Origin: Euglena gracilis | Lineage: Eukaryota | NCBI GenBank assembly: GCA_039621445.1 | Contig: CP154954.1 | Location: 34,383,737-34,447,736, forward strand | DNA length: 64,000 bases | Direction: 5' to 3' | Part shown: positions 9,001 through 41,268 of the stretch, one piece after another | Numbering within the stretch: the first letter of the stretch is position 1 | Layout: each line of letters opens with the position of its first letter | Program-made: the position numbers and the translations under genes | Notes under the pieces: generated by a model | Told to the model about the DNA's origin: nothing | The model's database searches: none | What the model saw: only the letters and a program-made list of their open reading frames with translations

Positions 9001-12000
9001 AGCCCAGGTTGCCGTGTAAAAATGGACCAAATTGGGCCTTACTCCGAGTAACCGAATGGGTGTTCCAGGAGGCGTCCAAAGTCAGGGGACCCGTTGCTTT
9101 CATGATTGTCGTGGTTTAGTGGTAAGATAAACATGCAGCGGGAATGTTGGTTGCAAGAAATGAGCACATTTAGATGGGTGCATTCGACCATTCGTGGGTA
9201 CATTTACCAGGTCAGCCCAGGTTACCATGTAAAAATGGACCAAAATGGGCCTTACTCCGAGTAACCGAATGGGTGTTCCAGGAGGCCTCCAAAGTCAGGG
9301 ACCCGTTGGTTTCATGATTGTCGTGATTTAATGGTAAGAAAAACATGCAGCGGGAATGTTGGTTGCAAGAAATGAGCACATTTAGATGGGTGCATTCGAC
9401 CATTCCGGGGGACGTTTACCAGGTCAGCCCAGGTTACCATGTAAAAATGGACCAAACTGGGCCTTACTCCGAGTAACCGAATGGGTGTTCCAGGAGGCCT
9501 CCAAAGTCAGGGGACACGTTGGTGTCATGACTGTCGTGATTTAATGGTAGGAAAAACATGCAGCGGGAATGTTGGTTACAAGAAATGAGCACATTTAGAT
9601 GGGTGCATTCGACCATTCCGGGGGACATTTACCAGGTCAGCCCAGGTTACCATGTAAAAATGGACCAAACTGGGCCTTACTCCGAGTAACCGAATGGGTG
9701 TTCCAGGAGGCCTCCAAAGTCAGGGGACTCGTTGGTGTCATGACTGTCGTGATTTAATGGTAGGAAAAACATGCAGCGGGAATGTTGGTTACAAGAAATG
9801 AGCACATTTAGATGGGTGCATTCGACCATTCCGGGGGACGTTTACCAGGTCAGCCCAGGTTACCATGTAAAAATGGACCAAATGGGCCTTACTCCGAGTA
9901 ACCGAATGGGTGTTCCAGGAGGCCTCCAAAGTCAGGGGACCCGTTGGTTTCATGATTGTCGTGGTTTATTGGTAGGACAAACATGCAGCGGGAACGTTGG
10001 TTGCAAGAAACCAGCACATTTAGATGGGTGCATTCGACCATTCCGGGGGACATTTACCAGGTCAGCCCAGGTTACCATGTAAAAATGGACCAAAATGGTC
10101 CTTACTCCGAGTAACCGAATGGGTGTTCCTGGAGGCCTCCAAAGTCAGGGGACCCGTTGTTTTCATGGTTGTCGTCGTTGAATGGTAAGAAAAACATGCA
10201 GCGGGAATGTTGGTTGCAAGAAATGAGCACATTTAGATGGGTGCATTCGAACATTCCGGGGGACATTTACCAGGTCAGCCCAGGTTACCATGTAAAAATG
10301 GACCAAATTGGGCCTTACTCCGAGTAACCGAATGGGTGTTCAAGGAGGCCTCCAAAGTCAGGGGACCCGTTGGTTTCATGATTTTCGTGGTTTAATGGTA
10401 AGAAAAACATGCTGCGGGAATGTTGTTTGCAAGAAATTAGCACATTTAGATGGGTGCATTCGACCATTCCGGGGGACATTTACCAGGTCAGCCCAGGTTG
10501 CCGTGTAAAAATGGACCAAATTGGGACTTACTCCGAGTAACCGAATGGGTGTTCCAGGAGGCCTCCAAGCTCAGGGAACCCGTTGGTTTCATGGCTGTCG
10601 TGGTTCAATGGTAAGAAAAAACAAGCAGCGGGAATGCTGGTTGCAAGAAATGAGCACATTTAGATGGGTGCATTCGACCATTCCGGGGGACATTTACCAG
10701 GTCAGCCCAGGTTACCATGTAAAAATGGACCAAAATGGGCCTTACTCTGACTAACCGAGTGGGTGTTCCAGGAGGCCTCCAAAGTCAGGGGTACCCGTTG
10801 TTTTCATGGTTGTCGTCGTTTAATGGTAAGAAAAACATGCAGCGTGAATGTTGTTTGCAACAAATTAGCACATTTAGATGGGTGCATTCGACCATTCCGT
10901 GGGACATTTACCAGGTCAGCCCAGGTTGCCGTGTAAAAATGTACCAAATTGGGCCTTACTCCGAGTAACCGAATGGGTGTTCCAGGAGGCGTCCAAAGTC
11001 AGGGGACCCGTTGCTTTCATGATTGTCGTGGTTTAGTGGTAAGAAAAAACATGCAGCGGGAACGTTGGTTGCAAGAAATGAGCACATTTAGATGGGTGCA
11101 TTCGACCATTCCTGGGTACATTTACCAGGTCAGCCCAGGTTACCATGTAAAAATGGACCAAAATGGGCCTTACTCCGAGTAACCGAATGGGTGTTCCAGG
11201 AGGCATCCAAAGTCAGGGACCCGTTGGTTTCATGATTGTCGTGATTTAATGGTGAGAAAAACATGCAGCGGGAATGTTGGTTGCAAGAAATGAGCACATT
11301 TAGATGGGTGCATTCGACCATTCTGGGGGACATTTACCAGGTCAGCCCAGGTTACCGTGTAAAAATGGACCAAATTGGGCCATACTCCGAGTAACCGAAT
11401 GGGTGTTACAGGAGGCTTCCAAAGTCAGGGGACCCGTTGGTTTCATGATTGTCGTGGTTTAATGGTAAAAAAAACATGCAGCGGGAATGTTGGTTGCAAG
11501 AAATGAGCACATTTAGATGGGTGCATTCGACCATTCCTGGGACATTTACCAGGTCAGCCCAGGTTACCATGTAAAAATGGACCCAATTGGGCCTTACTCC
11601 GAGTAACCAAATGGGTGTTCCAGGAGGCCTCCAAAGTCAGGGGACCCGTTGTTTTCATGGTTGTCGTCGTTTAATGGTAAGAAAAACATGCAGCGGGAAT
11701 GTTGGTTGCAAGAAATGAGCACATTTAGATGGGTGCATTCGATCATTGCGGGGGACATTTACCAGGTCAGCCCAGGTTACCGTGTAAAAATGGACCAAAT
11801 TGGGCCTTACTTCGAGTAACCGAATGGGTGTTCCAGGAGGCCTCCAAAGTCAGGGGACCCGTTGGCTTCATGATTGTCGTGGTTTAATGGTAAGAAAAAC
11901 ATGCAGCGTGAATGTTGTTTGCAAGAAGTTAGCACATTTAGATGGGTGCATTCGACCATTCCGGGGGACATTTACCAGGTCAGCCCAGGTTGCCGTGTAA

Positions 12001-15000
12001 AAATGGACCAAGTTGGGCCTTACTCCGAGTAACCGAATGGGTGTTCCAGGAGGCCTCCAAAGTCAGGGGACCCGTTGGTTTCATGATTGTCGTGGTTTAG
12101 TGGTAAGAAAAACATGCAGCGGGAATGTTGGTTGCAAGAAGTTAGCACATTTAGATGGGTGCATTCGACCATTCCTGGGGACTTTTACCAGGTCAGCCCA
12201 GGTTACCGTGTAAAAGTGGACCAAATTGGGCCTTACTCCGAGTAACCGAATGGGTGTTCCAGGAAGCCTCCAAGCTCAGGGGACCCGTTGGTTTCATGGT
12301 TGTCGTGGTTCAATGGTAAGAAAAACATGCAGCGGGAATGTTGTTTGCAGTAAATGAGCACATTTAGATGGGTGCATTCGACCATTCCGGGAGACATTTA
12401 CCAGGTCAGCCCAGGTTGCCGTGTAAAAATGGACCAAATTGGGCCTTACTCCGAGTGACCGAATGGGTGTTCCAGGAGGCCTCCAAAGTCAGGGGACCCG
12501 TTGGTTTCGTGATTGTCGTCGTTTAATGGTAAAAAAAAAAAGCAGCGGGAATGTTGGTTGCAAGAAATGAGCACATTTAGATGGGTGCATTCGACCATTC
12601 CGGGGGACATTTACCACGTCAGCCCAGGTTACCATGTAAAAATGGACCAAATTGGGCCTTACTCCGAGTAACCGAATGGGTGTTCCAGGAGGCCTCCAAA
12701 GTCAGGGGACCCGTTGGTTTCATGATTGTCGTGATTTAATGGTAAGAAAAACATGCGGCGGGAATGTTGGTTGCAAGAAATGAGCACATTTAGATGGGTG
12801 CATTCGACCATTCCGGGCGACTTTTACCAGGTCAGCCCAGGTTACCATGTAAAAATGGACCAAATTGGGCCTTACTCCGAGTAACCGAATGGGTGTTCCA
12901 GGAGGCCTCCAAGCTCAGGGGACCCGTTGGTTTCATGATTGTCGTGTTTCAATGGTAAGAAAAACATGCAGCGGGAATGTTGGTTGCAAGAAATGAGCAC
13001 ATTTAGATGGGTGCATTCGATCATTCCGGGGGACATTTACCAGGTCAGCCCAGGTTACCATGTAAAAATGGACCAAATTGGGCCTTACTTCGAGTAACCG
13101 AATGGGTGTTCCAGGAGGCCTCCAAATTCTGGGGACCCGTTGGTTTCATGATTGTCGTGGTTTCATGGTAAGAAAAACATGCAGCGTGAATGTTGTTTGC
13201 AAGAAACGAGCACATTTAGATGGGTGCATTCGACCATTCCTGGGGACTTTTACCAGGTCAGCCAAGGTTACCATGTAAAAATGGACCAAATTGGGCCTTA
13301 CTCCGAGTAACCGAATGGGTGTTCCAGGGGGCCTCCAAGCTCAGGGGACCCGTTGGTTTCATGATTGTCGTGGTTCAATGGTAAGAAAAACATGCAGCGG
13401 GAATGTTGGTTGCAAGAAATGAGCACATTTAGATGGGTGCATTCGACCATTCCGTGGGACATTTACCAGGTCAGCCCAGGTTACCATGTAAAAATGGACC
13501 AAAATGGGCCTTACTCCGAGTAACCGAATGGGTGTTCCAGGAGGCATCCAAAGTCAGGGGACCCGTTGGTTTCATGGTTGTCGTCGTTTAATGGTAAGAA
13601 AAAACAAGCAGCGGGAATGTTGGTTGCAAGAAATGAGCACATTGAGATGGGTGGATTCAACCATTCCGGGGGACATTTACCAGGTCAGCCCAGGTTACCA
13701 TGTAAAAATGGACCAAATTGGGCCTTACTCCGAGTAACCGAATGGGTGTTCCAGGAGGCCTCCAAAGTCAGGGGACCCGTTGGTGTCATGACTGCCGTGG
13801 TTTAATGGTAAGAAAAACATGCAGCGGGAACGTTGGTTGCAAGAAATGAGCACATTGAGATGTGTGCATTCGACCATTCCGGGGGACATTTACCAGGTCA
13901 GCCCAGGTTACCATGGAAAAATGGACCAAAATGGGCCTTACTCCGAGTAACCGAATGGGTGTTCCAGGAGGCCTCCAAAGTCAGGGGACCCGTTGGTTTC
14001 ATGATTGTTTGTGGCTTAATGGTAGGACAAACATGCAGCGGGAACGTTGGTTGCAAGAAATGAGCACATTTAGATGGGTGCATTCGACCATTCCGGGGGA
14101 CATTTACCAGGTCAGCCCAGGTTACCATGTAAAAATGGACCAAAATGGGCCTTTCACCGAGTAACCGAATAGGTGTTTCCAGGGGGCCTCCAAAGTCAGG
14201 GGACCCGTTGCTTTCATGATTGTCGTAGTTCAATGGTAGGAAAAACATACAGCGGGAGTGTTGGTTGCAAGAAATGAGCACATTTAGATGGGTGCATTCG
14301 ACCATTCCGGGGGACATTTACCAGGTCAGCCCAGGTTACCATGTAAAAATGGACCAAATTGGGCCTTACTCCGAGTAACCGAATGGGTGTTCCAGGAGGC
14401 CTCCAAAGTCAGGGGACCCGTTGGTTTAATGATGGTCGTGGTTTAATGGTAAGAAAAACATGCAGCGGGAACGTTGGTTGCAAGAAATGAGCACATTGAG
14501 ATGGGTGCATTCGACCATTCCGGGGGACATTTACCAGGTCAGCCCAGGTTACCATGTAAAAATGGACCAAATTGGGCCTTACTCCGAGTAACCGAATGGG
14601 TGTTCCAGGAGGCCTCCAAAGTCAGGGGACCCGTTGGTTTCATGATTGTCGTGGTTTAATGGTAAGAAAAACATGCAGCGGGAATGTTGGTTGCAAGAAA
14701 TGAGCACATTTAGATGGGTGCATTCGACCATTCCGGGGGACATTTACCAGGTCAGCCCAGGTTACCATGTAAAAATGGACCAAATTGGGCCTTACTCCGA
14801 GTAACCGAATGGGTGTTCCAGGAGGCCTCCAAAGTCAGGGGACCCGTTGGTTTCGTGATTGTCGTGGTTTAATGGTAAGAAAAAACATGCAGCGGGATTG
14901 TTGGTTGCAAGAAATGAGAACATTTAGATGGGTGCATTCGACCGTTCCAGGGGACATTTACCAGGTCAGCCCAGGTTACCGTATAAAAATGGACCATACT

Positions 15001-16664
15001 GGGCCTTACTCCGAGTAACCGAATGGGTGTTCCAGGAGGCCTCCAAAGTCAGGGCACCCGTTGGTTTCATGATTGTCGTGGCTTAGTGGTAAGAAAAACA
15101 TGCAGCGGGAACGCTGGTTGCAAGAAATGAGCACATTTAGATGGGTGCATTCGACCATTCCGGGGGACATTTTACCAGGTCAGCCCAGGTAACCATGTAA
15201 AAATGGACCAAAATGGGCCTTACTCCGAGTAACCGAACGGGTGTTCCAGGAGGCCTCCAAAGTCAGGGGACCCGTTGGTTTCATGATTGTCGTGGCTTAA
15301 TGTTTAGAAAAAAATGCAGCGGGAACGTTGGTTGCAAGAAATGAGCACATTTAGATGGGTGCATTCGACCATTCCGGGGGACATTTGCCAGGTCAGCCCA
15401 GGTTACCATGCAAAAATGGACCAAAATGGGCCTTACTCCGAGTAACCGAATGTGTGTTCCAGGAGGCCTCCAAAGTCAGGGGACCCGTTGGTTTCATGAT
15501 TGTCGTGGTTTAATGGTAAGAAAAACATGCAGCGGGAATGTTGGTTGCAAGAAATGAGCACATTTAGATGGGTGCATTCGACCATTCCGGGGGACATTTA
15601 CCAGGTCAGCCCAGGTTACCATGTAAAAATGGACCAAATTGGGCCTTACTCCGAGTAACCGAATGGGTGTTCCAGGAGGCCTCCAAAGTCAGGGGACCCG
15701 TTGGTTTCATGATTGTTGTGGCTTAATGGTAAGAAAAACATGCAGCGGGAATGTTGGTTGCAAGAAATGAGCACATTTAGATGGGTGCATTCGACCATTT
15801 CGGGGACATTTACCAGGTCAGCCCAGGTTACCATGTAAAAATGGACCAAATTGGGCCTTACTCCGAGTAACCGAATGGGTGTTCCAGGAGGCCTCCAAAG
15901 TCAGGGGACCCGTTGGTTTCATGATTGTCGTGGTTTAATGGTAAAAAAACATGCAGCGGGAATGTTGGTTGCAAGAAATGAGCACATTTAGATGGGTGCA
16001 TTCGACCATTCCGGGGGACATTTACCAGGTCAGCCCAGGTTACCATGTAAAAATGGACCAAATTGGGCCTTACTCCGAGTAACCGAATGGGTGTTCCAGG
16101 AGGCCTCCAAAGTCAGGGGACCCGTTGGTTTCATGATTGTCGTGGTTTAATGGTAAGAAAAACATGCAGCGGGAATGTTGGTTGCAAGAAATGAGCACAT
16201 TTAGATGGGTGCATTCGACCATTCCGGGGGACATTTACCAGGTCAGCCCAGGTTACCATGTAAAAATGGACCAAATTGGGCCTTACTCCGAGTAACCGAA
16301 TGGGTGTTCCAGGAGGCCTCCAAAGTCAGGGGACCCGTTGGTTTCATGATTGTCGTGGTTTAATGGTAAGAAAAACATGCAGCGGGAATGTTGGTTGCAA
16401 GAAATGAGCACATTTAGATGGGTGCATTCGACCATTTCGGGTTGACGTTTACCAGGTCAGCCCAGGTTACCGTGTAAAAATGGACCAAGCTGGGCCTTAC
16501 TCCGAGTAACCGAATGGGTGTTCCAGGAGGCCTCCAAAGTCAGGGCACCCGTTGGTTTCATGATTGTCGTGGTTAATTGTTAAGAAAAACATGCAGCGGA
16601 AATGTTGGTTTCAAGAAATGAGCACATTTAGATGGGTGTATTCGACCATTTCGGGGGACATTTA
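1..16664. repeat. 213-bp tandem satellite array (~78 copies, runs off the left edge)
   Basis: Unit CCTTACTCCGAGTAACCGAATGGGTGTTCCAGGAGGCCTCCAAAG...GGTTACCATGTAAAAATGGACCAAATTGGG recurs every 212-213 bp (TACTCCGAG at 15859, 16071, 16284). It ends mid-unit at GGGGGACATTTA (16664). Confidence 0.99.
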
Positions 16665-16665
16665 G

Positions 16666-17061
16666 TGTACGTCCTACCTTATCGCTTTCGCCCTTTGGTG
16701 CGCAGAAAAAGATATAAGTAGGAGCAACAGGAAAAATATAAAATAAATATAAAAGTTGTATTGCCCTTTTCCCCAATTAAGAGGCAGAGCACAAGACACT
16801 GTTGGAAGCCCTATGGGCTACGACAAAAGAAGCCAAGTATCTGGCAGTCCTTTCAGGACTTGTATGATCAAATCAAAACTTGAAGATTGAAAGAAGAAAA
16901 GAATACCACCTGCAGAGAGGAGGTCACGTGATCACACGTGATCGTGATCACGATTATCCCTAGGCTCTGCCACAATCCTAATTCTGAGACTATGCTCAGC
17001 AATCAGATTGTGGATGAGCCGTTCTATGGCGAACCACAGAACTGGGATCGTGCCTGGTACA
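16666..17061 (-). mobile_element. putative 3' LTR (396 bp)
   Basis: Bounded by inverted TGTAC (16666) ... GTACA (17061). It abuts the satellite on one side and a purine tract on the other. No second LTR is present to confirm it. Confidence 0.75.
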
Positions 17062-17073
17062 CATCCCCCTCCC
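17062..17073 (-). other. polypurine tract (PPT)
   Basis: Minus strand reads GGGAGGGGGATG immediately before the TGTACC LTR start. Confidence 0.7.
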
Positions 17074-17906
17074 AGGGCTATAGCCCGATTTCCCTCATGG
17101 ACCAGGCTATCCCAGGCCCATGGGGGTTCGGACATAGTCCTGAAGGATATGTTCCAGCACATTGCTGCCGACCTCCTATCTGCCAAATGGCAAAAGGAAA
17201 AAGGGAAGGAAAGTGCAAAAGCACGCAAAAACGCGCAAAAGTGGTTAACCGCTTATGCGGTGCCTACTTGTTGCGGCAAAGGGGTAGAAGCGGAAGAGCC
17301 CATTGGGAAATGGGGCTGGAAGGTTTCCTTTCCAGAAAGTCCCATCCACCCAGTTTGGGGTGTGTCTATGACACGCGGGGAGGTCTGATTCCATAATCGG
17401 AAAAGATTGAAGGGTAGGGTGTGGAAGGAGGGGGCACCTGGCCAGTCATATCTGACCAGGGAGAAAACCTATTTACAAAACCAACTGCCGGCGACAGCGA
17501 GATTTTGCCCCGGGGGGTAAAGGAGAGAGGAGTGGGGGGCTGGTCAAAAGACCTTAGCAGAAGTTTTGCTGTCTGGCAGTCTTACGTGGCCTTATAGCCG
17601 AAAAGTAACAAGTTGGGGGCTATTATTACGGTGTGCGCGCTGTACGCTGTGTGTCTTCTTACTGGCGGCATATACCGCTAGGAGAAGGCTTCACAGCGCT
17701 GCTCGGACACGGTGTTGTCGATGGGGTATCCCCAGAGACATATACCTCGATAGACGGGCAGTAGCCCAAAAGAGAGGGGGTAATATGTAAAGTAAAAATT
17801 CATATTGGCAGATGTGCCTGGGATAGATACCGAATTCAGGGCCTATAGGCCTGATGGAAAGGTCAGAACAGGGTCCATGGACCTGTGGCCTGTAAGCCTG
17901 GGGTAT

Positions 17907-20900
17907 CTATGGCACAGATGGCCATTTCCTGGGAGTCGGTGGTCTGATCTCCCGAACGTAATCTCCTTCAGGAGATTCCACTATCTCCAGTATCGGAGGT
18001 TCGAAATTTACAAGTTGCCTTTCAGGCTCATCGACATCAAAATCGGGATATTCCCATTTTTGTGTATACCCGTCGGGTAATCGTATTCCAAGCCTGTTGG
18101 CTTCGCGATGCAGAAAATTCTGGAGGTTATCCCAGAAGAAAAGTGGCAACATTGCCGGCCAGATCCAAAAGTTTAGGCGGGGGTGGTTGCATTGAACCTG
18201 TGGGGGTATCCCCGGATAAACGGCAGGATCTGCCTTGGTGTGCCAACCTGCGACTCGCGCTCGGATGGTGAATGGCCTTAAAACTTCTCTTACCCAATCG
18301 GTAAATTCCATTTTATAGGCCTTAGGGGGGTATTCGGGCAACAAAAAGGTAAAACTTGGTCGGTTTGGCAGGCTTTGTGCCGTAAAAAGTGGGTATATCA
18401 CCCTGTCCCAATCGGAGTCTTGAAAAATGTATGGCACTTTGGCCTTGCCTGCTGACTCGACTGCGAGTCGGACAGCTGCGCTGTCAAGATGAAAATCTTT
18501 GGCGATTCCGCCTGTGCGGTAGCTGTGTACAGCTTTAAACTTCTTGAACTGGTAGAAGTTGATTTGGGACTTATAGTCCTGCTTGAATTTGACCAGATGG
18601 TCTTCATTTTCTGGTATGACTCTAGTCATACCGCCAGTGGCAGGTAGCCAAAAATCTGCCTGTAGGCAGTTGATGCAACGGACAGGTATGTCCTTGTCAT
18701 AATCGTTTTCCGTCCAACGGAAATTGTCCATATTGGACCATGTCAGTAGGCAATCGCCACAAACCAGTGCTGCGCAATTGCGCACATATGCATCATGGTG
18801 GAAGCTTATGCTATCCGGGTTGCGTGTGCAAATATGCACTGCAGGCATGTCGTTTCGTAGCCTATGGCATGCTGTACATAACCACAATAGTGGATCATTG
18901 TCCTGGAAATCCAGTACGAAATTTCCTCCAAAGTATTGGGCTAATACCCTTGGAGATTTCGCATTCCAAAAACGCCAAGTGTGGCTGGTCGTGAAAATAC
19001 CGGGTTGATCCCGGTGGAACAAGGGCTTGATCCACTTGTTCAGCCAGGGGTCACTGCTGTTGCGGATCATATTGATCCTAGCCTGGCGAGTGTTGAGGGG
19101 GTCTACTCTGGACAATACGTCCTCAGTCCAAAATGGCTCATCGGCCTCGTGAGGGACATTTGACCGAATCGGTCTGATTGTGGGTTTGCGCTTAGCGCCT
19201 TCAGAGGTTGCAGCCACATAGCTGGCCATGGGTATCGTAGGCCTATGGCCTGTGCCAGAGCCATCTCCACCAGACGGTGGTGGCTCATCATCCCGCCGCT
19301 GTTCAGCGGGCTTGCAGCCTTCAGTTGAAGGTTTAGCCTTGGGCTTTATATGCCTGCCATATCGGCGTTCTTCCCGAGGGTCTGCCGGAGGCAGTGGTCT
19401 CTCCGCCGTTGGCGGTTTCGGGGCTGCAGGTTTGGCAGGAGATGCCGATGCTGCCGGTTTGGCAGGCGGTGGTTGCATTTCCGCCGTTGGCGGTGTTGGT
19501 GCAGCTGGTTTAGCTGCTGGGACATCTAACTCCATTGGAGTTGTAGCCGTAGGCTGTACGGCTGTTGAGCTGCTATCTGCCGTAGTAACCCTTTGGGTTT
19601 CGGGAGGGGATGTGGCTGGTGAGCCTCGAGGGGTCAGTACTGCTGAAACTGCGGACATCGCCGCGGTCAGACCCTGTAACACACCACCTAAAACACCTGT
19701 AGGTATTGTTGGTGATGCGACAGGTTCTGTCAGGGTTGGTGCCGTTGGCACTGCGGGTAAGGAGAGGGGTGGTACGGGAGGTACCGGTGGCCGTTCGGCC
19801 TCGGATGTAGGAGATTCCGTCTCTGAGCTGACATCTCCTTCAGGCGGAAGGGGTGTCCTGGAGCCCTTTGGGACTAATGGAAGGGCTGATGGCTGAGGTT
19901 CCTCAGCACATATGTCTTCCAGGCCTTCCATGCGGTCTTCACCGCCCTCACCATCACTCTCCTCACTGTCCTCCACCTTTTCTGGTGAAGCGGCAGGGGC
20001 TGCTGGCTGTTCCGCTATAGCGGTGGGCACAGTTGTTGGTTGCGCAATCGCGCTGGTGGGGGGTGCCGCAGTAGCGGGCTGGGGTGAAGAGGTAGCGACA
20101 GAAGATTGACTCTCCTGAAATCCCATAGGGATAAATGGTTCCGCAGTAGCCGATAGGCTGGAACCTAGGTAACGCCGACCGCGCCCAAAGACGGGTGGGG
20201 GTGTCTCACCAGGAATACCCTGGGGAACAGGCGTTGCCGGTTGCGGCTGCGTTGTGGGTACTAATGCCGGTTGCGGCTGTGTTGAAGGTTCCGATGGCGG
20301 AACTTCCGAAGCCGGTTGCGGCTTTGGGACAGGTGCCTGTGGCACCTGTCTTTTCCGTAATCGGAAAAGATCCCATGGTTTCCTTTCGTCTTCAACCATT
20401 CTGTGGTTGAAGCGCAGGAGGGGTAGGGCCATGCCCAGCTCGTTCCGTCTGCCGCCTTGGAAAAACGGCTGGAACAGCGCTCTATCGAGCGTATCGCCGA
20501 ATCGGCGTTTGACATAATCGTCTATGCTTTACTTCTCGAACAGGGGCCTGATGGGGACATAGTCCGGAGGAATTTCCCTGTCGGGATTGAGATAATAATA
20601 TATCTCCATAATCTGGCAGGTCCAAGCCCTGAACCAGAATTGCTGCAAATACAGCAGGAGTTGACGGTGGTTGTGTCGCCCATTCGAGCTTTGGTGAACA
20701 TCCTTTGGATTTCTGCAAAGGTGCAGGAGCATGATGCGCTTTGGCGCTGTCTGCGGGATATTGGCCTGTTGGCCTTCCTCGTCCTGGCCTTCGGCCTGTG
20801 GTTGAGTACTGCGTACTCCGAATCCCCAGAAGTCCACTGCAAACTTTTCGTGACAGTGGGTGCATCTGACGATATACGTCTGGGGGAAGCGGAGGTCAAT

Positions 20901-23712
20901 ATCGACCACTTCAAAATGATAGGCATATTGCCAGTGGTAGAAGACTTGCAGATTGCTGCAGAACATGTTCTCTGCCAATTTGGCAATATTGTCAGGCAGT
21001 GGGTAGATTTCCCACTCCAGGCCTTTTGGGCCTACACTGCGAATGCAGTCGAATAACTGCCGTAGCAAATCTTTACCTGTATTGTATCGGTCTTCCCGAC
21101 CGCAATCCAGATAAGGATATCCACAGGAGTTCAGGAATCTGCCGAAATTTTGGGTGGGGTATCCCGCCCAGAACCAAACGTGCCAGAATCCCGGCAGACC
21201 GTCCAGTATCGGACCGAGAATTACGTTGCCCTCATAGGCATACAGGGTTCCATCGTGGTGGAACTCACGATTACGCTCCAAATAGAGCTGTCTGGTCACA
21301 GTGACGACGAGTTATGCAACCAGCATTGGAAGAGAAAGTTCGTTTTGAAACTTTCTCATGGCCTCGAATGCGAGTGCATGAATCTCTTTGATGTGCTCGA
21401 ATAGAGCTTCCATGTCGTCCTCATAGACGTTCCGGTATTGGCCTTTCTGGCCTTTGCCTTGGCCTTTTTGGCCTGCTGTCGGTGCTCGTTTGGGAGCACT
21501 TTTGGCTTTACCCTTGCCCGATCGGGCTTCGCTTCGGGCAATCTCTTCTCTAGCTTGTTTCCAAGCATGAGGATTGAGATGGGCTGCAAAACGAGGGCCT
21601 ATAAAGGCAGGATTTATATCGCTTGTTGTTCCAAGCAATTCCTGCGGGGCATAAGCCATTTTGGCTGCTGGGTAGGCTGCAGGTTGATCCTGCATATCCG
21701 CCAAAAATGGTGGATTATTGATAGGGAGGGGTTCGCCTCTAGGCGGATCAATGTAAGTGGGGTGGCGTGTACGTTCACGCGTGTCATCCAGTATTTTCTG
21801 GACGCGTGCACGCTCAGCAGCTTCGTGCTCGATTTCTGCCCTATGGGCTCTCTGGGCCAGTTCAGCCTGTTCGAGCTGCTGCTGTGTGGGTTCAGGAACA
21901 GGCAGTACCTCGGTGGTGGCCTGTTGGCCTGGAGGTACCGGTGTTTCCTGGGATGCCGGCGCCATTGGCGCTGCTACTGGCAACAGCGCCGTTGGCGCTG
22001 CTGGAGCTGCCGGCGCTGCTGCTTTTGCTGGCACCGGCCGGGGGTTTTGCGCCATTGGCGCTGGCTTAGCCGGCGCGGCATAAGGTACGGGCACGGGAGG
22101 GGGTGCGGCCTGTTGGCCACCCGGCGCCCGTCGTTGCTGTGCTGGGGTAGCCTGTCTGGCTGGGGCTGGGGCAGGGGCCGGAGGTTTCGGTCTCCCCATT
22201 GGGGATGAAGATTCTGGCCTGCCCCGTTTACTACCTAGGTCTGCTGGCCTGTACGGCTGTGACGCATATCTGCGTTCTGCAGACCGTGGGCCCTGAAGTT
22301 GCTCTAGGGACTGGTAGTACTGGATGGCCTGCTGAGGTGATGTGAAGCGAGGTGCTGGGAGAGGTTCAGGTGCCGTTGGCACATCCTCTTCCACGGCCAT
22401 TCGGCCTTCTGCCTCGGCTTGCTCCACATCCTCAGCCCAGGATCCAGGTTCCTGACCCACCGACATATCCCGTTGTACGGGTAACTGACTTCCAGCTTCC
22501 AGATGGGCTGGATAAGGAAATGGTGGTTGTGCTGTTGACGGTTGCGTCATTGGCTCTGCCGCATATTGCGTTGGTGGTTCCCGATATTCGGGTGGTGGTG
22601 GTCTCGGCATACGAGTTGGGGACTGTGCATCGCGAAAAATTCGTGATGGCTGCACCGTTGGTGCTGGGATGTCTCCCATCTCGCTTTCCTCCACTGGGGG
22701 GCTATGCTCCCGCATGTATTCGGTGAATGCACCTGCATGATGGCGTATCCGCGGGATAGGCGGTACTGGAATACCCAGTGTACGCATGCTGACCTCAGGG
22801 GGATATTCCCCGGGCATGAAGTACACTTTTCCTGTCATCAAAGTCTGGCACATGCGCACCATTGTGCAATGGGCCTATTGGCCAGGCCCAGAATTTGACG
22901 ACAGTGGGTATCCCACAGCACCTGTAGAGATGGGTCTACTCTCTCTAGGTTGCTGGCCCGCAAGGCCGTTCGCAGAGTCTTCTCTGCGAGATTCACCAAT
23001 TCTGCGGTGAAGGCGGGGTATGGCACCGTTGGTGCTGCCTGTGGCGTCTCATGTGCCACAGGGATCGCGTAAGCGGATATACTACTGCTGCTAGCTGCGG
23101 TTTGGGCAGCGGGTTCCCGGACGGGATAAGCGCAGGTTGGGGCATCGCCTGTACGGCGTGTACTTGATGCGGGGTACCCTGTATGGGTTGAGATTTGGGT
23201 TGGGATTGGGGTTGCTGAGATGTAACACACTGTGGGGTATACAGGATGGGAGGTGAGTGGCCAGGCATGGCGTAATGCGCCTGCTCCATTGGAGGTGCCT
23301 GTCCCTGCCTCGCATACTGTTGTTGTTCCATTGGAACTTGGTGTACCTGCTGGGGTTGTGACTGTTCCATTGGAACTTGATATGCCTGTTGAGGCTGTGC
23401 CCCATATGCAGCTCCCATTGGCACAGAAGCCGCATAAACGACAGGTGGCGGTTGCGCCTGAGATAGGGGCGGCATTTGTGCCTGAGAGGGGGGCGGCATT
23501 TGTGCCTGAGAGGGATATGGCATTTGTGCCTGAACCTTTTGAGGGGGGGCTGGCATTTGTGCCTGAGCCGCATAAGCGACTGGAAAGGGTTGATATACTG
23601 CATATGCGGGCGCCCCTTGCGCTGGGGGTGCTGCCGCATTGGCGTGTTGGGGGTAGGGAGGGATGGCATACTGTATAGGGGGCGGACCGGGTCCGCGCCC
23701 TGGATCTTGCAT
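17907..23712 (-). pseudogene. giant extra ORF of the retrotransposon (~1,935 aa when reassembled): Pro/Gln/Ala-rich regions plus Cys/His-rich domains, function unknown
   Basis: The 279, 298, 516, 256 and 841 aa track ORFs join. Two 1-bp shifts (~23074, ~22863) link the first three. The 516, 256 and 841 aa ORFs share a frame and are separated only by single TAA codons (21312-21314, 20529-20531). 5806 nt + 2 = 1936 codons. Confidence 0.7.
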
Positions 23713-23751
23713 CGGTCCGGGGACCAAAAAGCAAAAAGTAGCTTTGATGAG

Positions 23752-23812
23752 CTGTAGAAAAAGAAGAGAGATGAATTGGGTTTGGGAGAAAAACACAGAG
23801 AGGGGAGGAAAA
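23752..23812 (-). promoter_or_regulatory. polypyrimidine tract and CAG splice acceptor upstream of the extra ORF
   Basis: Minus strand TTTTCCTCCCCTCTCTGTGTTTTTCTCCC...CTCTCTTCTTTTTCTACAG|CTC. The AG is at 23753-23752, 39 nt before the ATG at 23712. Confidence 0.65.
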
Positions 23813-23828
23813 GGCCTATAGGCCGATT

Positions 23829-24800
23829 TCAAAAATTATTCACAGAAATGTCTATATTATTTCTTTTATTCCGCAGCTTCCAGTCCTGTTGGACATAACC
23901 AATAAAACTGGAGGCTGGCTCCCAGGTGTCCTCCTCTGGCCCATAGCCTTTCCACCTGACCTTCCAGTAGTGGACTCCTCGATCAATTTTGTGATCGAGA
24001 ATTTTGTCCACCACAAAATCATCCGTTTCGGGTAACTTGGAACGGGGCTTGAAATAAAGGCACGGTAGTGCTTTGCCATTAGGCGGGGAAAGATATGGCT
24101 TGAAATCATCCATGTGAACATCCTCGATCCCGTTGGGCAGTGCCACCCTATAGCGGCCACTGTTACCAACGCGTTCGAGTATTTCACAGGGTCCGAGCCA
24201 GAGGGGGTCAAGCTTGGAAGCTTGCATACGGATTCGGCTATTCCGAACCCATACGCGATCACCAGCACTATAGCCAGGTGATTTGAATTCTTGTAAAAAT
24301 TTATTTCTCTTTTGAGAATGGATATCTGTAATGCGTTTCTGAACAGTAGTTCTGAGAGACTCTACCTCAGAGAACCATGTCTCACAGGTTACGCTACTTC
24401 GAGCTGGTCTCTCTGATGGTATATCACCAATTGCTGGGGGTTCTCGCCCAAAAACAATTTTGTATGGGGAGTGGGGTAAAACTAAACCCGGTAGGGTGTT
24501 TATATAAAAGAGGGACCATGGCAAAACCTGGACCCAGGCCTGGCGCGAATCAGCCAGTGAAAGACGGAGCATATTTACAACAGCTTTCACTGCTGCCTCG
24601 GCGCGGCCATTGCCCTTCGGGCGATATATAATGGAAAAATGCTGTTCGATTCCCAGTAAACCACATAGGGTTGTGAAGAATCGAGAGGAGATCAAATGAT
24701 CTTGATCACTGACAATCTCATTCGGTAAGCCCATTAGGCATATGCACTTCTCCATAAATATCTGCGCTAAAATTTGGCGGTCAACCCTGCCTTTGGGCAT
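23829..24800 (-). CDS. retrotransposon integrase core (partial), GPY/F-like region and C-terminal chromodomain; N-terminus lost
   Basis: [11 protein letters not shown]...[10 protein letters not shown] with exactly 35 residues between D and [25 protein letters not shown]...[17 protein letters not shown]. No stops over 323 aa. Confidence 0.96.
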
Positions 24801-24802
24801 GG

Positions 24803-27800
24803 AGTTGGGCAACAAAAGGGATTTGCCCCCCAAAAGGGTGGGGTAACACAAAGGATTTTGTTGTTTTGGGGCCCTCGAACAGTTGGGCAACAAAAGGGAT
24901 TTGCCCCCCCAAAACGGGTGGGTAACACAAGGGATTTTGTTATTTTGGGGCCCTCGAACAGTTGGGCAACAAAAGGGATTTGCCCCCCCAAAACGGGTGG
25001 GTAACACAAGGGATTTTGTTGTTTTGGGGCCCTCGAACAGTTGGGCAACCAAAGGGATTTGCCCCCCCAAAACGGGTGGGTAACACAAGGGATTTTGTTG
25101 TTTTGGGGCCCTCGAACAGTTGGGCAACAAAAGGGATTTGCCCCCCCCCCAAAACGGGTGGGTAACACAAGGGATTTTGTTATTTTGGGGCCCTCGAACA
25201 GTTGGGCAACAAAAGGGATTTGCCCCCCAAAACGGGTGGGTAACACAAGGGATTTTGTTATTTTGGGGCCCTCGAACAGTTGGGCAACCAAAGGGATTTG
25301 CCCCCCCAAAACGGGTGGGTAACACAAGGGATTTTGTTATTTTGGGGCCCTCGAACAGTTCGGCAACCAAAGGGATTTGCCCCCCAAAACGGGTGGGTAA
25401 CACAAGGGATTTTGTTGTTTTGGGGCCCTCGAACAGTTGGGCAACCAAAGGGATTTGCCCCCCAAAACGGGTGGGTAACACAAGGGATTTTGTTGATTTG
25501 GGGCCCTCGAACAGTTGGGCAACAAAACGGATTTGCCCCCCCGAAACGGGTGGGTAACACTTGTGTTGGGGCCCTCGAACAGTTCGGCAACAAAAGGGAT
25601 TTGCCCCCCAAAACGAATGGGTAACACAAGGGATTTTGTTATTTTGGGGCCCTCGAACAGTTGGGCAACCAAAGGGATTTGCCCCCCAAAACGGGTGGGT
25701 AACACAAGGGATTTTGTTATTTTGGGGCCCTCGAACAGTTGGGCAACAAAAGGGATTTGCCCCCCAAAACGGGTGGGTAACACAAGGGATTTTGTTGTTT
25801 TGGGGCCCTCGAACAGTTGGGCAACCAAAGGGATTTGCCCCCCAAAACGGGTGGGTAACACAAGGGATTTTGTTGTTTTGGGGCCCTCGAACAGTTGGGC
25901 AACAAAACGGATTTGCCCCCCAAAACGGGTGGGTAACACAAGGGATTTTGTTATTTTGGGGCCCTCGAACAGTTGGGCAACCAAAGGGATTTGCCCCCCC
26001 AAAACGGGTGGGTAACACAAGGGATTTTGTTGTTTTGGGGCCCTCGAACAGTTGGGCAACCAAAGGGATTTGCCCCCCCAAAACGGGTGGGTAACACAAG
26101 GGATTTTGTTGTTTTGGGGCCCTCGAACAGTTGGGCAACAAAAGGGATTTGCCCCCCCAAAACGGGTGGGTAACACAAGGGATTTTGTTATTTTGGGGCC
26201 CTCGAACAGTTCGGCAACCAAAGGGATTTGCCCCCCCAAAACGGGTGGGTAACACAAGGGATTTTGTTGTTTTGGGGCCCTCGAACAGTTGGGCAACAAA
26301 AAGGATTTGCCCCCCCAAAACGGGTGGGTAACACAAGGGATTTTGTTGTTTTGGGCCCCCCAAACATTTGGCAACCAAAAGATATTTGCCCCCCAAAACG
26401 GGTGGGTAACACAAGGGATTTTGTTGTTTTGGGGCCCTCGAACAGTTGGGCAACAAAAGGGATTTGCCCCCCCAAAACGGGTGGGTAACACAAGGGATTT
26501 TGTTGTTTTGGGGCCCTCGAACAGTTCGGCAACCAAAGGGATTTGCCCCCCCAAAACGGGTGGGTAACACAAGGGATTTTGTTGATTTGGGGCCCTCGAA
26601 CAGTTGGGCAACCAAAGGGATTTGCCCCCCCCCAAAACGGGTGGGTAACACAAGGGATTTTGTTATTTTGGGGCCCTCGAACAGTTGGGCAACAAAAGGG
26701 ATTTGCCCCCCCCAAAACGGGTGGGTAACACAAGGGATTTTGTTGTTTTGGGGCCCTCGAACAGTTGGGCAACCAAAGGGATTTGCCCCCCAAAACGGGT
26801 GGGTAACACAAGGGATTTTGTTATGTGGCGCCCTCGAACAGTTGGGCAACCAAAGGGATTTGCCCCCCAAAACGGGTGGGTAACACAAGGGATTTTGTTG
26901 TTTTGGGGCCCTCGAACAGTTGGGCAACCAAAGGGATTTGCCCCCCCCCAAAACGGGTGGGTAACACAAGGGATTTTGTTGTTTTGGGGCCCTCGAACAG
27001 TTGGGCAACAAAAGGGATTTGCCCCCCCAAAACGGGTGGGTAACACAAGGGATTTTGTTGTTTTGGGGCCCTCGAACAGTTGGGCAACCAAAGGGATTTG
27101 CCCCCCAAAACGGGTGGGTAACACAAGGGATTTTGTTGTTTTGGGGCCCTCGAACAGTTGGGCAACAAAAGGGATTTGCCCCCCCAAAACGGGTGGGTAA
27201 CACAAGGGATTTTGTTGATTTGGGGCCCTCGAACAGTTTGGCAACCAAAGGGATTTGCCCCCCCAAAACGGGTGGGTAACACAAGGGATTTTGTTGTTTT
27301 GGGGCCCTCGAACAGTTGGGCAACAAAAGGGATTTGCCCCCCCAAAACGGGTGGGTAACACAAGGGATTTTGTTGTTTTGGGGCCCTCGAACAGTTGAGC
27401 AACAAAACGGATTTGCCCCCCCCAAAACGGGTGGGTAACACAAGGGATTTTGTTGTTTTGGGGCCCTCGAACAGTTGGGCAACAAAAGGGATTTGCCCCC
27501 CAAAACGGGTGGGTAACACAAGGGATTTTGTTGATTTGGGGCCCTCGAACAGTTGAGCAACAAAACGGATTTGCCCCCCCAAAACGGGTGGGTAACACAA
27601 GGGATTTTGTTATTTTGGGGCCCTCGAACCGTTTGGCAACCAAAGGGATTTACCCCCCAAAACGAATGGGTAACACAAGGGATTTTGTTATTTTGGGCCC
27701 TCGAACAGTTCGGCAACCAAAGGGATTTGCCCCCCCAAAACGGGTGGGTAACACAAGGGATTTTGTTATTTTGGGGCCCTCGAACAGTTGGGCAACACAA

Positions 27801-29700
27801 GGGATTTGCCCCCCCCAAAACGGGTGGGTAACACAAGGGATTTTGTTGTTTTGGGGCCCTCGAACAGTTGGGCAACAAAACGGATTTGCCCCCCCAAAAC
27901 GGGTGGGTAACACAAGGGATTTTGTTGTTTTGGGGCCCTCGAACAGTTGGGCAACAAAAGGGATTTGCCCCCCAAAACGGGTGGGTAACACAAGGGATTT
28001 TGTTGTTTTGGGGCCCTCGAACAGTTCGGCAACAAAAGGGATTTGCCCCCCAAAACGGCTGGGTAACACAAGGGATTTTGTTTTTTTTTGGGCCCTCGAA
28101 CAGTTCGGCAACCAAAGGGATTTGCCCCCCAAAACGGGTGGGTAACACAAGGGATTTTGTTATTTTGGGGCCCTCGAACAGTTTGGCAACAAAAGGGATT
28201 TGCCCCCCCAAAACGGGTGGGTAACACAAGGGATTTTGTTATTTTGGGGCCCTCGAACAGTTCGGCAACCAAAGGGATTTGCCCCCCCAAAACGGGTGGG
28301 TAACACAAGGGATTTTGTTGTTTTGGGGCCCTCGAACAGTTGGGCAACAAAAGGGATTTGCCCCCCAAAACGGGTGGGTAACACAAGGGATTTTGTTTTT
28401 TTGGGGCCCTCGAACAGTTCGGCAAACAAAAGGATTTGCCCCCCCAAAACGGGTGGGTAACACAAGGGATTTTGTTGTTTTGGGGCCCTCGAACAGTTGG
28501 GCAACAAAACGGATTTGCCCCCCAAAACGGGTGGGTAACACAAGGGATTTTGTTGTTTTGGGGCCCTCGAACAGTTGGGCAACCAAAGGGATTTGCCCCC
28601 CAAAACGGGTGGGTAACACAAGGGATTTTGTTGTTTTGGGGCCCTCGAACAGTTGGGCAACAAAAGGGATTTGCCCCCCCAAAACGGGTGGGTAACACAA
28701 GGGATTTTGTTATTTTGGGGCCCTCGAACCGTTGGGCAACAAAAGGGATTTGCCCCCCCAAAACGGGTGGGTAACACAAGGGATTTTGTTGTTTTGGGGC
28801 CCTCGAACAGTTGGGCAACAAAGGGATTTGCCCCCCCAAAACGGGTGGGTAACACAAGGGATTTTGTTGTTTTGGGGCCCTCGAACAGTTGGGCAACAAA
28901 AGGGATTTGCCCCCCAAAACGGGTGGGTAACACAAGGGATTTTGTTATTTTGGGGCCCTCGAACAGTTGGGCAACAAAAGGGATTTGCCCCCCCCCCCCG
29001 CCAAAACGGGTGGGTAACACAAGGGATTTTGTTATTTTGGGGCCCTCGAACAGTTGGGCAACAAAAGGGATTTGCCCCCCCCCAAAACGGGTGGGTAACA
29101 CAAGGGATTTTGTTGTTTTGGGGCCCTCGAACAGTTGGGCAACAAAAGGGATTTGCCCCCCCAAAACGGGTGGGTAACACAAGGGATTTTGTTGTTTTGG
29201 GGCCCTCGAACAGTTCGGCAACAAAAGGGATTTGCCCCCCCAAAACGGGTGGGTAACACAAGGGATTTTGTTGTTTTGGGGCCCTCGAACAGTTGGGCAA
29301 CAAAAGGGATTTGCCCCCCCAAAACGGGTGGGTAACACAAGGGATTTTGTTAATTTGCGGCCCTCGAACAGTTGGGCAACAAAGGGATTTGCCCCCCAAA
29401 ACGGGTGGGTAACACAAGGGATTTTGTTGTTTTGGGGCCCTCGAACAGTTGGGCAACAAAAGGGATTTGCCCCCCCAAAACGGGGGGGTAACACAAGGGA
29501 TTTGTTTGTTTTGGGGCCCTCCAACAGTTGGGCAAACAAAAGAGTTTTCCCCCCCCCCAAAACGGGTGGGTAACACAAGGGATTTTGTTGTTTTGGGGCC
29601 CTCGAACAGTTGGGCAACCAAAGGGATTTGCCCCCCCCCCAAAACGGGTGGGTAACACAAGGGATTTTGTTATTTTGGGGCCCTCGAACAGTTGGGCAAC

Positions 29701-29732
<32 letters not shown>

Positions 29733-30870
29733 AATACCCCCCCCCACCCCCCCCCCCCCCCTCCCCCCCCGCCCCCCAAAACGGGTGGGTAACACAAGGG
29801 ATTTTGTTATTTTGGGGCCCTCGAACAGTTGGGCAACCAAAGGGATTTGCCCCCCCAAAACGGGTGGGTAACACAAGGGATTTTGTTATTTTGGGGCCCT
29901 CGAACAGTTCGGCAACCAAAGGGATTTGCCCCCCAAAACGGGTGGGTAACACAAGGGATTTTGTTGTTTTGGGGCCCTCGAACAGTTGGGCAACCAAAGG
30001 GATTTGCCCCCCAAAACGGGTGGGTAACACAAGGGATTTTGTTGTTTTGGGGCCCTCGAACAGTTGGGCAACAAAAGGGGTTTGCCCCCCAAAACGGGTG
30101 GGTAACACAAGGGATTTTGTTATTTTGGGGCCCTCGAACCGTTCGGCAACAAAAGGGATTTGCCCCCCAAAACGGGTGGGTAACACAAGGGATTTTGTTG
30201 TTTTGGGGCCCTCGAACAGTTGGGCAATCAAAGGGATTTGCCCCCCCAAAACGGTGGGTAACAAAAGGGATTTGTTTATTTTGGCCCCTTCGAACAGTTG
30301 GGCAATCTAAGGGATTTGCCCCCCAAAACGGGTGGGTAACACAAGGGATTTTGTTGTTTTGGGGCCCTCGAACAGTTGGGCAACCAAAGGGATTTGCCCC
30401 CCCCCAAAACGGGTGGGTAACACAAGGGATTTTGTTGTTTTGGGGCCCTCGAACAGTTGGGCAACAAAACGGATTTGCCCCCCCAAAACGGGTGGGTAAC
30501 ACAAGGGATTTTGTTATTTTGGGGCCCTCGAACAGTTGGGCACCAAAAGGGATTGCCCCCCCAAAACGGGTGGGTAACACAAGGGATTTTGTTGTTTTGG
30601 GGCCCTCGAACAGTTGGGCAACAAAAGGGATTTGCCCCCCCAAAACGGGTGGGCTACCCCAAGGGTTTTTGTGGTTTGGGGCCCTCGAACCGGTTGGGAA
30701 ACAAAGGGGTTTTGCCCCCCCAAAACGGGTGGGTAACACAAGGGATTTTGTTGTTTTGGGGCCCTCGAACAGTTGGGCAACCAAAGGGATTTGCCCCCCC
30801 AAAACGGGTGGGTAACACAAGGGATTTTGTTGTTTTGGGGCCCCGAACAGTTGAGGCAACCAAAAGGGTT

Positions 30871-30904
<34 letters not shown>

Positions 30905-39800: not shown

Positions 39801-41268
39801 TCCACCGGACGGTGATGCACATCCACCGGATGGTGATGCACATCCACCGGACGGTGACGCACATCCACCAGACGGCGACACACATCCAACGGCGCACATC
39901 CACCGGACGGTGGCAGACATGCACCAGATGGCGACGCAGTTCCACCGGACCGTGACGCACATCCACCGAAAAGTGACGCACATCCACCCGGTGGTGACGC
40001 CCATCCACCCGACAGTGACGCACATCCACCAGACAATAACTCACATCCACCGGACGGTAACTCACATCCACTGGACGTTGATGCCCATCCACTGGTGACG
40101 CACATCCGAAGGACGGTGAAACACATCCGAAGAACGGCGATGCACATCCACCGGAGGGTAATACACATTCACAGGACGGTGACACACTTCCACGGAACGG
40201 TCATGCACATCCACCGGATGGTGACGCACATCCACCGAACAGTAACGCACATCTACCGGAGGGTAATACACATTCACAGGACGGTGACGCACATCCACCA
40301 AACGGTGATGCACATCCACCGGACGGTGACGCACATCCACCGAACAGTAACGCACATCCACCGGACGGCGACACACATCCAACGACGCACATCCACCGGA
40401 CGGTGAAGCACATCCACCACCGGACGGTGATGCACATCCACCGGACACTGACGCACATCCACCGAACGGTGATGTACATCCACTGGACGGTGACACACAT
40501 CCAACGACGAACATCATCCGGACAGTGATGCACATCCACCGGACGGTGACACACATCCACCAGACGGTGACGCAAATCCACCGGACGGTGACGCACCTCC
40601 ACCGGGCGGTGACGCACCTCCACCGGGCGGTGACGCACATCCACCGGACAGTAACGCACATCCACCGGACGGTGACACACATCCACCGGATGGTAATGCA
40701 CATCCACCGGACGGTGACACACATCCACCAGACGGTGACGCACATCCACCGGGCACCTCCACCAGACGGTGACGTACATCCACCGCACGGTGACGCACCT
40801 CCACTGGACCGTGACACACATCCAATGACGCACATCCACCGCACGGTGACACACATCCACCGGACGGTGATGCACATCCACCGGACATAGGCGCATATTC
40901 CTTCGGACGGTGACGCACGTCCACCAGACGGTAACTCACGTCCACCGGACGGTGGCAAACATCCACCGGACGGTGGCACACATGCACCAGACGGTGACGC
41001 AGTTCCACCGGACGGTGACGCACATCCACCGAACATTTACGCACATCCACCCGATGGTGACGCCCATCCACCGGACAATGACGCACATCCCCCAGACGGT
41101 GATACACATCCTGACGGTGACTCGCATCCACCGGACAGCAACGCACATCCACCGGACAGTAACTCACATCCACCGGACGGTGATGCCCATCCACCGGACG
41201 GTGATGCACATCCACCGGACGGTGATGCCCATCCACCGGACGGTGATGCACATCCACCGGACACTGAC

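Follow-up and report, generated by a model that had tools for sequence, protein, structure and literature searches.

Extra open reading frames (ORFs) behind pol are already known in several groups of long terminal repeat (LTR) retrotransposons, as the available portions of two reports describe (PMC11963269, PMC5408684). In plant Retand elements, the region from pol to the 3' LTR measures 2.9-6.6 kb and holds mostly antisense TRP28 ORFs (PMC11963269), and the bdelloid rotifer elements Vesta, Juno and TelKA carry a family-specific ORF3 after pol, often not an env gene, which is said to be expressed from spliced messages (PMC5408684). The accessible text of a further report describes the Euglena DAM-LTR or 'EpiLTR', which are LTR elements with a chromodomain as well as adenine and cytosine DNA methyltransferases (10.64898/2026.05.21.726589). 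Here, we analysed a 64,000-nucleotide stretch of the Euglena gracilis genome (contig CP154954.1; hereafter the window), which holds an 8.1-kb retroelement piece on the minus strand, sandwiched by a 213-bp and a 79-bp satellite. Positions 17907-23712 of the window probably represent one decayed copy of ORF3, a genuine third gene carried by a chromodomain Ty3/gypsy-type LTR retrotransposon that E. gracilis has at very high copy number. ORF3 itself is real, family-wide and conserved, and it does not look like an envelope protein. What looks new here is the ORF3 protein family and its size; no published description of this ORF3 was found in a literature search, the reach of which did not include supplements.

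Judged by the remains of pol, the chromoviruses are among the known systems closest to the element. The order of integrase core tail, SH3 domain and chromodomain is the same, the polypurine-like tract and the probable short LTR with inverted ends are alike, and the chromovirus hallmark, an integrase followed by a C-terminal chromodomain, is present. The element likewise lies inside satellite DNA, a location that fits elements targeting heterochromatin. However, chromoviruses typically end soon after the chromodomain, whereas about 6.8 kb follow here, 5.8 kb of which form one sense ORF that exceeds the usual pol in size. EpiLTR shares with this element the host species and the combination of a chromodomain with added modules, but its methyltransferase domains have no Pfam match in the 8.1 kb studied here (the ORF3 pieces and the integrase tail, the upstream pol being absent), and the available part of its description makes no mention of a large ORF of unknown function. 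Retand elements, as far as the accessible text goes, resemble this element in the similar length of sequence that separates pol from the 3' LTR (~6.8 kb here) and in their family-wide extra ORFs, possibly regulatory or nucleic-acid-binding. In contrast, they belong to non-chromovirus lineages with conserved ORFs that are mostly antisense TRP28, while the present element has a single giant ORF, in sense orientation and with no match in Pfam. The bdelloid ORF3s, in the portion of the report at hand, measure about 210-600 amino acids (aa) and are of recognisable types (fusion glycoprotein, GDSL esterase, DEDDy exonuclease); the ORF3 described here is about three times larger and of no recognisable type.

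ORF3 runs on the minus strand from an ATG at 23712-23710 to a terminal TAG at 17909-17907, and 117 nt separate its ATG from the pol stop. A first-pass annotation, made from the letters of the window, had joined five ORFs into one frame between these two codons and had explained its breaks by two single-base losses and two lone in-frame TAA codons. The frames, the start and the stop were all found, both TAAs are present (21314-21312 and 20531-20529), and both frame changes go in the direction that fits one missing base each (codon-start class 0 to 1 to 2). The features of ORF3 are as follows.

17907-23712, minus strand: ORF3 accessory gene, ~1,935 codons, interrupted in this copy by two frame changes of one base and by two TAA codons.
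23040-23090, minus strand: first frame change, from class 0 to class 1, located to this zone by the codon-position GC switch and the translations.
22848-22849, minus strand: second frame change, where other copies have an additional letter.
21312-21314, minus strand: in-frame TAA no. 1, from the translation; the next piece has no Met before the conserved block.
20529-20531, minus strand: in-frame TAA no. 2, peculiar to this copy.
20532-21311, minus strand: middle folded block, C-x2-C ... DFWGF ... H-x-C (alignments A2 and A4).
19638-19694, minus strand: hydrophobic Gly/Ala/Ser-rich segment, the sole membrane-like stretch, inside a disordered tract.
18666-18878, minus strand: Cys/His cluster, C-x2-C-H ... 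H-x-C ... C-x4-C-x2-C ... C-x2-C.
18120-18215, minus strand: C-terminal motif PGxPPQ..NHP..N..IWP..LP.F.WDNLQ (alignments A1 and A3).

The five pieces correspond to the minus-strand stop-to-stop frames 22993-23835, 22838-23815, 21312-22874, 20529-21311 and 17907-20528, and the last three of them (520, 260 and 873 codons) have a common frame and are parted only by single TAAs. Over 17907-23712, the main frame contains 7 stops in 1,935 codons versus 37-78 in the other five frames, and the 873-codon open stretch is far beyond chance. GC content peaks at codon position 1 in every piece; this signal changes frame at ~23040-23090, a zone compatible with the first frame-change site of the first-pass annotation, and again near 22850. 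Two frames are simultaneously open in the first 700 nt of ORF3. Under the reading proposed above, and with the same degree of confidence, ORF3 in sound copies is likely to be one sense-strand frame of ~1,930 codons.

The encoded protein has relatives elsewhere. A full HMMER scan of 1.84 billion representatives, with a 1,133-aa query translated from 21308 to 17910 (X at the TAA), returned 23 relatives at E <= 1e-3, including 15 at <= 1e-10 and 2 at <= 1e-30. These relatives are 58-426 aa long, share 23-99% identity with the query and together span most of it. Their matches fall in the middle block, in the linker and in the C-terminal block. Origins were checked for 20 of the 23, with P0014, P0017 and P0018 left out: two are entries of the E. 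gracilis EukProt transcriptome (P0002, 99% identical over 123 aa, and P0003, with 44% identity), five come from ENA metagenome assemblies, five from JGI/IMG and eight from Logan contigs. As for the setting of the relatives, metagenome scans with A3 and P0019 and a viral scan with A3 matched patterns and yielded no relative. Three word-indexed searches were uninformative: the C-terminal block at near lengths gave no relative, profile A1 gave only two of its own members, and a search at shorter lengths with residues 300-782 of the piece that includes TAA no. 1 gave none, although relatives are known from the full scan. These negatives carry no meaning.

Composition windows and translations agree with the first-pass description of Pro/Gln/Ala-rich tracts alternating with folded blocks, and three such aromatic- and Cys/His-rich blocks can be seen. 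The Pro/Gln/Ala-rich N-terminus is followed by a coiled-coil-like stretch and a Lys/Gly-rich basic stretch. The long linker is rich in Pro, Ala and Thr; within it lie an acidic patch and a single hydrophobic segment that is conserved. The C-terminal block (~430 aa) contains ten conserved Cys/His together with the PGxPPQ..NHP..IWP motif. Even the distant relatives, at 23-44% identity, retain Cys/His positions and motifs. In the middle block, counting only rows with a residue at the place, C149 is kept in 5 of 6, C152 in 4 of 5, H196 in 4 of 5 and C198 in 5 of 5. Of the ten C-terminal positions, seven are invariant among the rows that have a residue there (5/5 to 8/8), and C159, C164 and C167 are kept in 6/7, the exception being the decayed fragment P0015. 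The longer form of the motif, PGxPPQ..NHP..N..IWP..LP.F.WDNLQ, is common to relatives at 23-39% identity, and P0013 and P0021 stop within a few residues of the C-terminus of the window protein. The Cys/His cluster at 18666-18878 is probably a two-zinc module. An internal duplication as the source of the two Cys/His blocks was not supported (BLASTP E 1.3, hhalign probability 0.5%).

The state of the breaks in other copies was read from Logan contigs of four public runs (X1, X15, X16 and X20), aligned to 16600-24900 at 90% likeness. The differences reported here are those listed, with 29 length and 537 letter differences beyond the list, and gaps in the cover of X15, X16 and X20 (e.g. 21586-21862) carry no meaning. 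The second frame change was found at ~22848/22849, where an extra letter occurs in all four runs: in 16 contigs of X1 (depth 70,131 of 131,656), one contig of X15 (5.18 of 5.18), one of X16 (4.31 of 4.31) and two of X20 (5.63 of 10.5). This letter joins the second and third ORF3 frames. The site lies ~15 nt downstream of GCACA[A]ATG, where the first-pass annotation had put the missing base, so its proposed reading AQMVRM is wrong. Position 20531 reads another letter in 54 contigs of X1 (depth 345,753 of 346,552) as well as, at all depth, in one contig of X15 and two of X20, which turns TAA no. 2 into a sense codon. Because other runs have a sense codon at 20531 and the extra letter at 22848, TAA no. 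2 and the second frame change are defects of this copy or its assembly; contigs lose rare variants, and a true mutation and a repeat-assembly error are not separable at these breaks. Among the listed differences from the majority, 24 fall inside ORF3, 7 of which keep the residue and 17 of which change it (one being the stop), and this copy thus shows the pattern expected of neutral decay in a dead copy.

A question raised by the breaks is whether the stretch represents two or three separate genes (N-terminal part, middle block and C-terminal block), with the single frame being coincidental or a family-specific fusion. We consider this unlikely. Such an arrangement would fit the metagenomic relatives P0020 and P0022, which open with a Met 60-160 aa before the middle block, although P0022 has no stop where TAA no. 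2 would fall and both are open, in a weak alignment, across the place of TAA no. 1. The longest relative has only 426 aa; however, the relatives are short because their source contigs measure only ~0.9-4.8 kb, so that the contigs limit their length. TAA no. 1 is not among the listed run differences, which would also suit separate genes, but the piece behind it has its first Met only within the conserved block. Moreover, the last three pieces form one frame with single stops between them, and TAA no. 2 is missing from nearly all other contigs.

The reading of ORF3 as a third gene of the retrotransposon also draws on its abundance. In X1, 63,493 contigs matched the element (13,402 at a likeness of at least 99%, 22,787 at 95-99% and 27,304 at 90-95%) and covered 30 of 30 bins. 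The mean summed depth, which is no copy number, was ~474,000 over the 21 ORF3 bins versus ~600,000 over the 3 integrase bins. Bridging contigs occur in X15, X16 and X20; for example, a 706-nt contig of X15 (23669-24332) spans the end of pol, the spacer and the start of ORF3, and a contig of X16 (17203-17933) spans the end of ORF3 and the sequence downstream. Since ORF3 has nearly the depth of the integrase and is bridged to its neighbours, it belongs to a very high-copy element family and is present wherever the integrase is. These results support the first-pass proposal of a large accessory gene on the sense strand, located after pol and before the 3' LTR. Its reservation that the region might have been captured only in this copy does not hold, as ORF3 occurs at integrase-like depth across the X1 contigs. 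In X20, an RNA-library run from a leaf-litter metatranscriptome, element pieces occur at ~90-97% likeness, which indicates presence, not transcription.

In the window, the element is a 3' fragment, truncated at its 5' side, where the 11-kb 79-bp satellite cuts the integrase at 24802/24803. The remains outside ORF3 and the two satellites are as follows.

24803-35805, no strand: 79-bp satellite, which takes the place of the 5' part of the element.
23829-24802, minus strand: 3' end of pol, with the integrase core tail, SH3 domain (24108-24263), chromodomain (23910-24017) and stop TGA (23831-23829).
23713-23828, minus strand: spacer between pol and ORF3, with a pyrimidine-rich tract ending CTACAG and the palindrome GGCCTATAGGCC at 23813-23824.
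17074-17906, minus strand: untranslated stretch from the ORF3 stop to the polypurine tract, with palindromes at 17840-17851 and 17075-17086.
17064-17073, minus strand: polypurine-tract-like GGGAGGGGGA, recognised by its sequence.
16665-17063, minus strand: putative 3' LTR, ~399 bp, which starts with TGTGTAC and ends with GTACAC (inverted ends).
7-16664, no strand: 213-bp satellite, ~78 units with 92-93% matches, which harbours the inserted 3' end of the element.

The pol remnant comprises the last 323 codons. Pfam matched it with Chromo (6e-11, 42.5 bits, cut-off 25.1) and SH3_Tf2-1 (1.5e-7), and the rve tail scored 0.016, under its cut-off. Neither gag nor protease nor reverse transcriptase was found within the 64-kb window, where satellite occupies their side, and no second copy of any element part was found in it. 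The first-pass idea that the gene may define an undescribed retroelement lineage would call for the reverse transcriptase and gag to be judged. Contigs of X15 and X16 continue beyond 24803 into non-satellite sequence, so the junction at 24803 is peculiar to this locus or its assembly. The other junction, between the 213-bp satellite and the 3' end of the element, lies at 16664/16665, and both satellite contigs and foreign flanks join the element at 16664.

It is very unlikely that ORF3 lies outside the retrotransposon, as a host gene or part of another element brought beside the truncated integrase by nesting or misassembly. Although the window copy is a fragment between two satellites, with no 5' LTR, gag or reverse transcriptase present as a tie, contigs of other runs bridge pol to ORF3 and ORF3 to the downstream sequence, and integrase and ORF3 have similar depth in a family of 63,493 contigs. 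There is no LTR-like break from pol to ORF3, and the same 12-nt palindrome stands after the pol stop, after the ORF3 stop and at the polypurine tract. The transcript P0003, at 44% identity, could be a host paralogue and would then speak for such an origin.

Equally improbable is an envelope-like or membrane-acting ORF3 that uses its hydrophobic segment as a fusion peptide or anchor. ORF3 does occupy the env position, and a coiled-coil-like stretch lies upstream of the segment at 19638-19694, which reaches a Kyte-Doolittle 19-residue maximum of 1.59, just below the usual threshold of 1.6, and is kept in three fragments (P0006, P0017 and P0018). In line with the first-pass view, neither a signal peptide nor a clear membrane anchor was found in ORF3 by the hydropathy scale, which is crude and no dedicated predictor; the N-terminus is Pro/Gln-rich and hydropathy peaks in this one internal segment. 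Against a membrane role stand the lack of an N-terminal signal sequence and of a second hydrophobic segment, the Pro-rich disorder of about half of the protein, the lack of a Pfam glycoprotein match and the likeness of the Cys/His pattern to intracellular zinc sites. For viral fusion glycoproteins specifically, there was no Pfam match at E <= 0.1 and no PDB sequence match, and the models are too poor for a fold test. The segment could form an amphipathic or membrane-touching helix. Finally, a non-coding compositional artefact of GC- and CAG/CCA-rich repeat DNA can be dismissed, because relatives at 23-44% identity share conserved Cys/His and motifs, the folded blocks are not low-complexity and stops are so much rarer than in the other frames (7 versus 37-78), even though two frames are open together in the first 700 nt, as in low-complexity DNA.

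Comparison with known families gave no match for the ORF3 protein. None of the five ORF3 pieces had a Pfam match at E <= 0.1, and no family was shared among alignment members at E <= 5; of the PDB sequence profiles, one gave a best E of 0.22 and the other no match. The AlphaFold2 (AF2) models were poor, with a predicted local distance difference test (pLDDT) score of 38.9 for the C-terminal block and 47.7 for the middle block, in which residues 77-165 reached 63-84. For the middle-block model, Foldseek against PDB found no match at E <= 0.001, and a VIA wide search reached no Z >= 5, its rows being confined to a single long helix of low confidence. Weak Foldseek matches of 29-30 residues to the ELOF1 zinc ribbon serve as a lead only. 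A language-model atlas contained no usable match for the middle block, and the look-alikes were RING-type clusters with scores of 0.77-0.81. RING and PHD cross-brace fingers likewise have at least 8 conserved Cys/His in a paired C-x2-C, H-x-C arrangement. In RING, however, 2-3 residues lie between the second and third ligand pairs, unlike the gap of ~17-25 residues read from the alignment here, and the RING and PHD models of Pfam matched 0 of 12 alignment members at E <= 0.1 (one at E 1.8); in both respects RING does not fit.

At the 3' end of the element, TGTGTAC comes directly after GGGAGGGGGA, at 17063. The element terminates with GTACAC at 16665, and loose contig ends at 16664 confirm this terminus. 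From these sequence features, 16665-17063 is the probable 3' LTR, with boundaries good to ~2 nt; the window is without a 5' LTR for comparison. Contigs of X15, X16 and X20 diverge at 17049 and 17052, 11-14 nt past GGGAGGGGGA. Two continuations exist at 17049-17052, one of them a diverged version of the window's own sequence, and the divergence suggests LTR subfamilies with conserved tips. About 830 nt lie between the ORF3 stop and the polypurine tract. At 17154-17707, the X1 depth is 0.88-1.02 million, about double the ~0.47-0.60 million in ORF3 and the integrase. In the present reading, this part belongs to the sequence before the polypurine tract and is no part of the LTR; non-autonomous relatives may have it too, or the true LTR may extend further than placed.

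The 12-nt palindrome, as GGCCTATAGGCC, as GGGCTATAGCCC or, in one case, with a mismatch, is located at 23813-23824, 22872-22883, 17840-17851 and 17075-17086, that is, after the pol stop, within ORF3, 56 nt past the ORF3 stop and abutting the polypurine tract. All four copies in the window are inside the element, compared with a chance expectation of 0.27, and 0 of 100 shuffles reached four. It may label sites of processing or regulation, or the borders of an inserted module. Elsewhere in the window, the 79-bp satellite contains a degenerate G/C-run-rich stretch at ~33360-34180, and a 21-bp minisatellite at 37997-41262 (~159 units, 73% matches, GC ~60%, strong AT skew) yields long spurious ORFs in several frames. 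No convincing protein-coding frame was found in 36000-64000, where GC ranges from 0.46 to 0.60 across blocks, and Rfam had 0 matches in the window.

Several points weigh against the reading of this stretch as one giant third gene of the element. No complete copy was found, so a frame of 1,935 codons without a break is a deduction and was not itself seen. The first frame change, like TAA no. 1, is absent from the listed run differences, and the early Met of P0020 and P0022 could indicate separate genes in other lineages. All 23 relatives are short fragments, any retroelement setting of the distant ones would be conjectural, and the N-terminal 800 aa of ORF3 were outside the HMMER query. The abundance is expressed in summed depths, not copies, and the doubled depth at 17154-17707 is not explained by the proposed placement of the LTR. 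The RNA evidence consists of transcriptome-assembly fragments and an RNA-library run that possibly contains DNA. As for the function, the AF2 models are poor and no fold or family matched.

If ORF3 is the third gene of this retrotransposon, its expression might proceed from a subgenomic message, made by cis-splicing or by spliced-leader trans-splicing at the pyrimidine tract and AG of the spacer. By its look, the AG at 23753-23752 is a candidate splice or trans-splice acceptor. Since the host trans-splices most of its messages and the tract is acceptor-like, such a message would offer the simplest means of expressing ORF3. An analogy for a spliced ORF3 message would come from other LTR elements and their ORF3s. 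As for the protein, we speculate that it has no enzymatic activity and may serve the element as an adaptor that binds zinc and acts on nucleic acid or chromatin; handling element RNA or blunting host silencing would be guesses at such a role. A wider proposal, possible but more doubtful than the gene itself, is that ORF3 founds an undescribed family of giant zinc-binding LTR accessory proteins in euglenids and other uncultured protists. It would be under selection, expressed from a subgenomic message trans-spliced to the spliced leader, and needed for the success of this repeat, which would rank among the most abundant in the 2.4-Gb Euglena genome.

The available text of a genome report, which on repeats offers totals only, gives the 2.37-Gb E. 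gracilis genome one fifth to one third of LTR elements and a further third of unclassified repeat (PMC11252322). If the present reading is true, the 5.8-kb ORF3 would be among the most repeated coding sequences of this genome, and it could account for part of the 'unknown' repeat fraction and for many orphan transcripts. In genome annotation, its frames would be masked as transposon genes and not taken for host genes. As accessory genes of LTR elements go, ORF3 would be uncommonly large, and its conserved domains fit no family; it would provide a concrete handle on how a retroelement adapts to a host with heavy 5-methylcytosine and pervasive trans-splicing.

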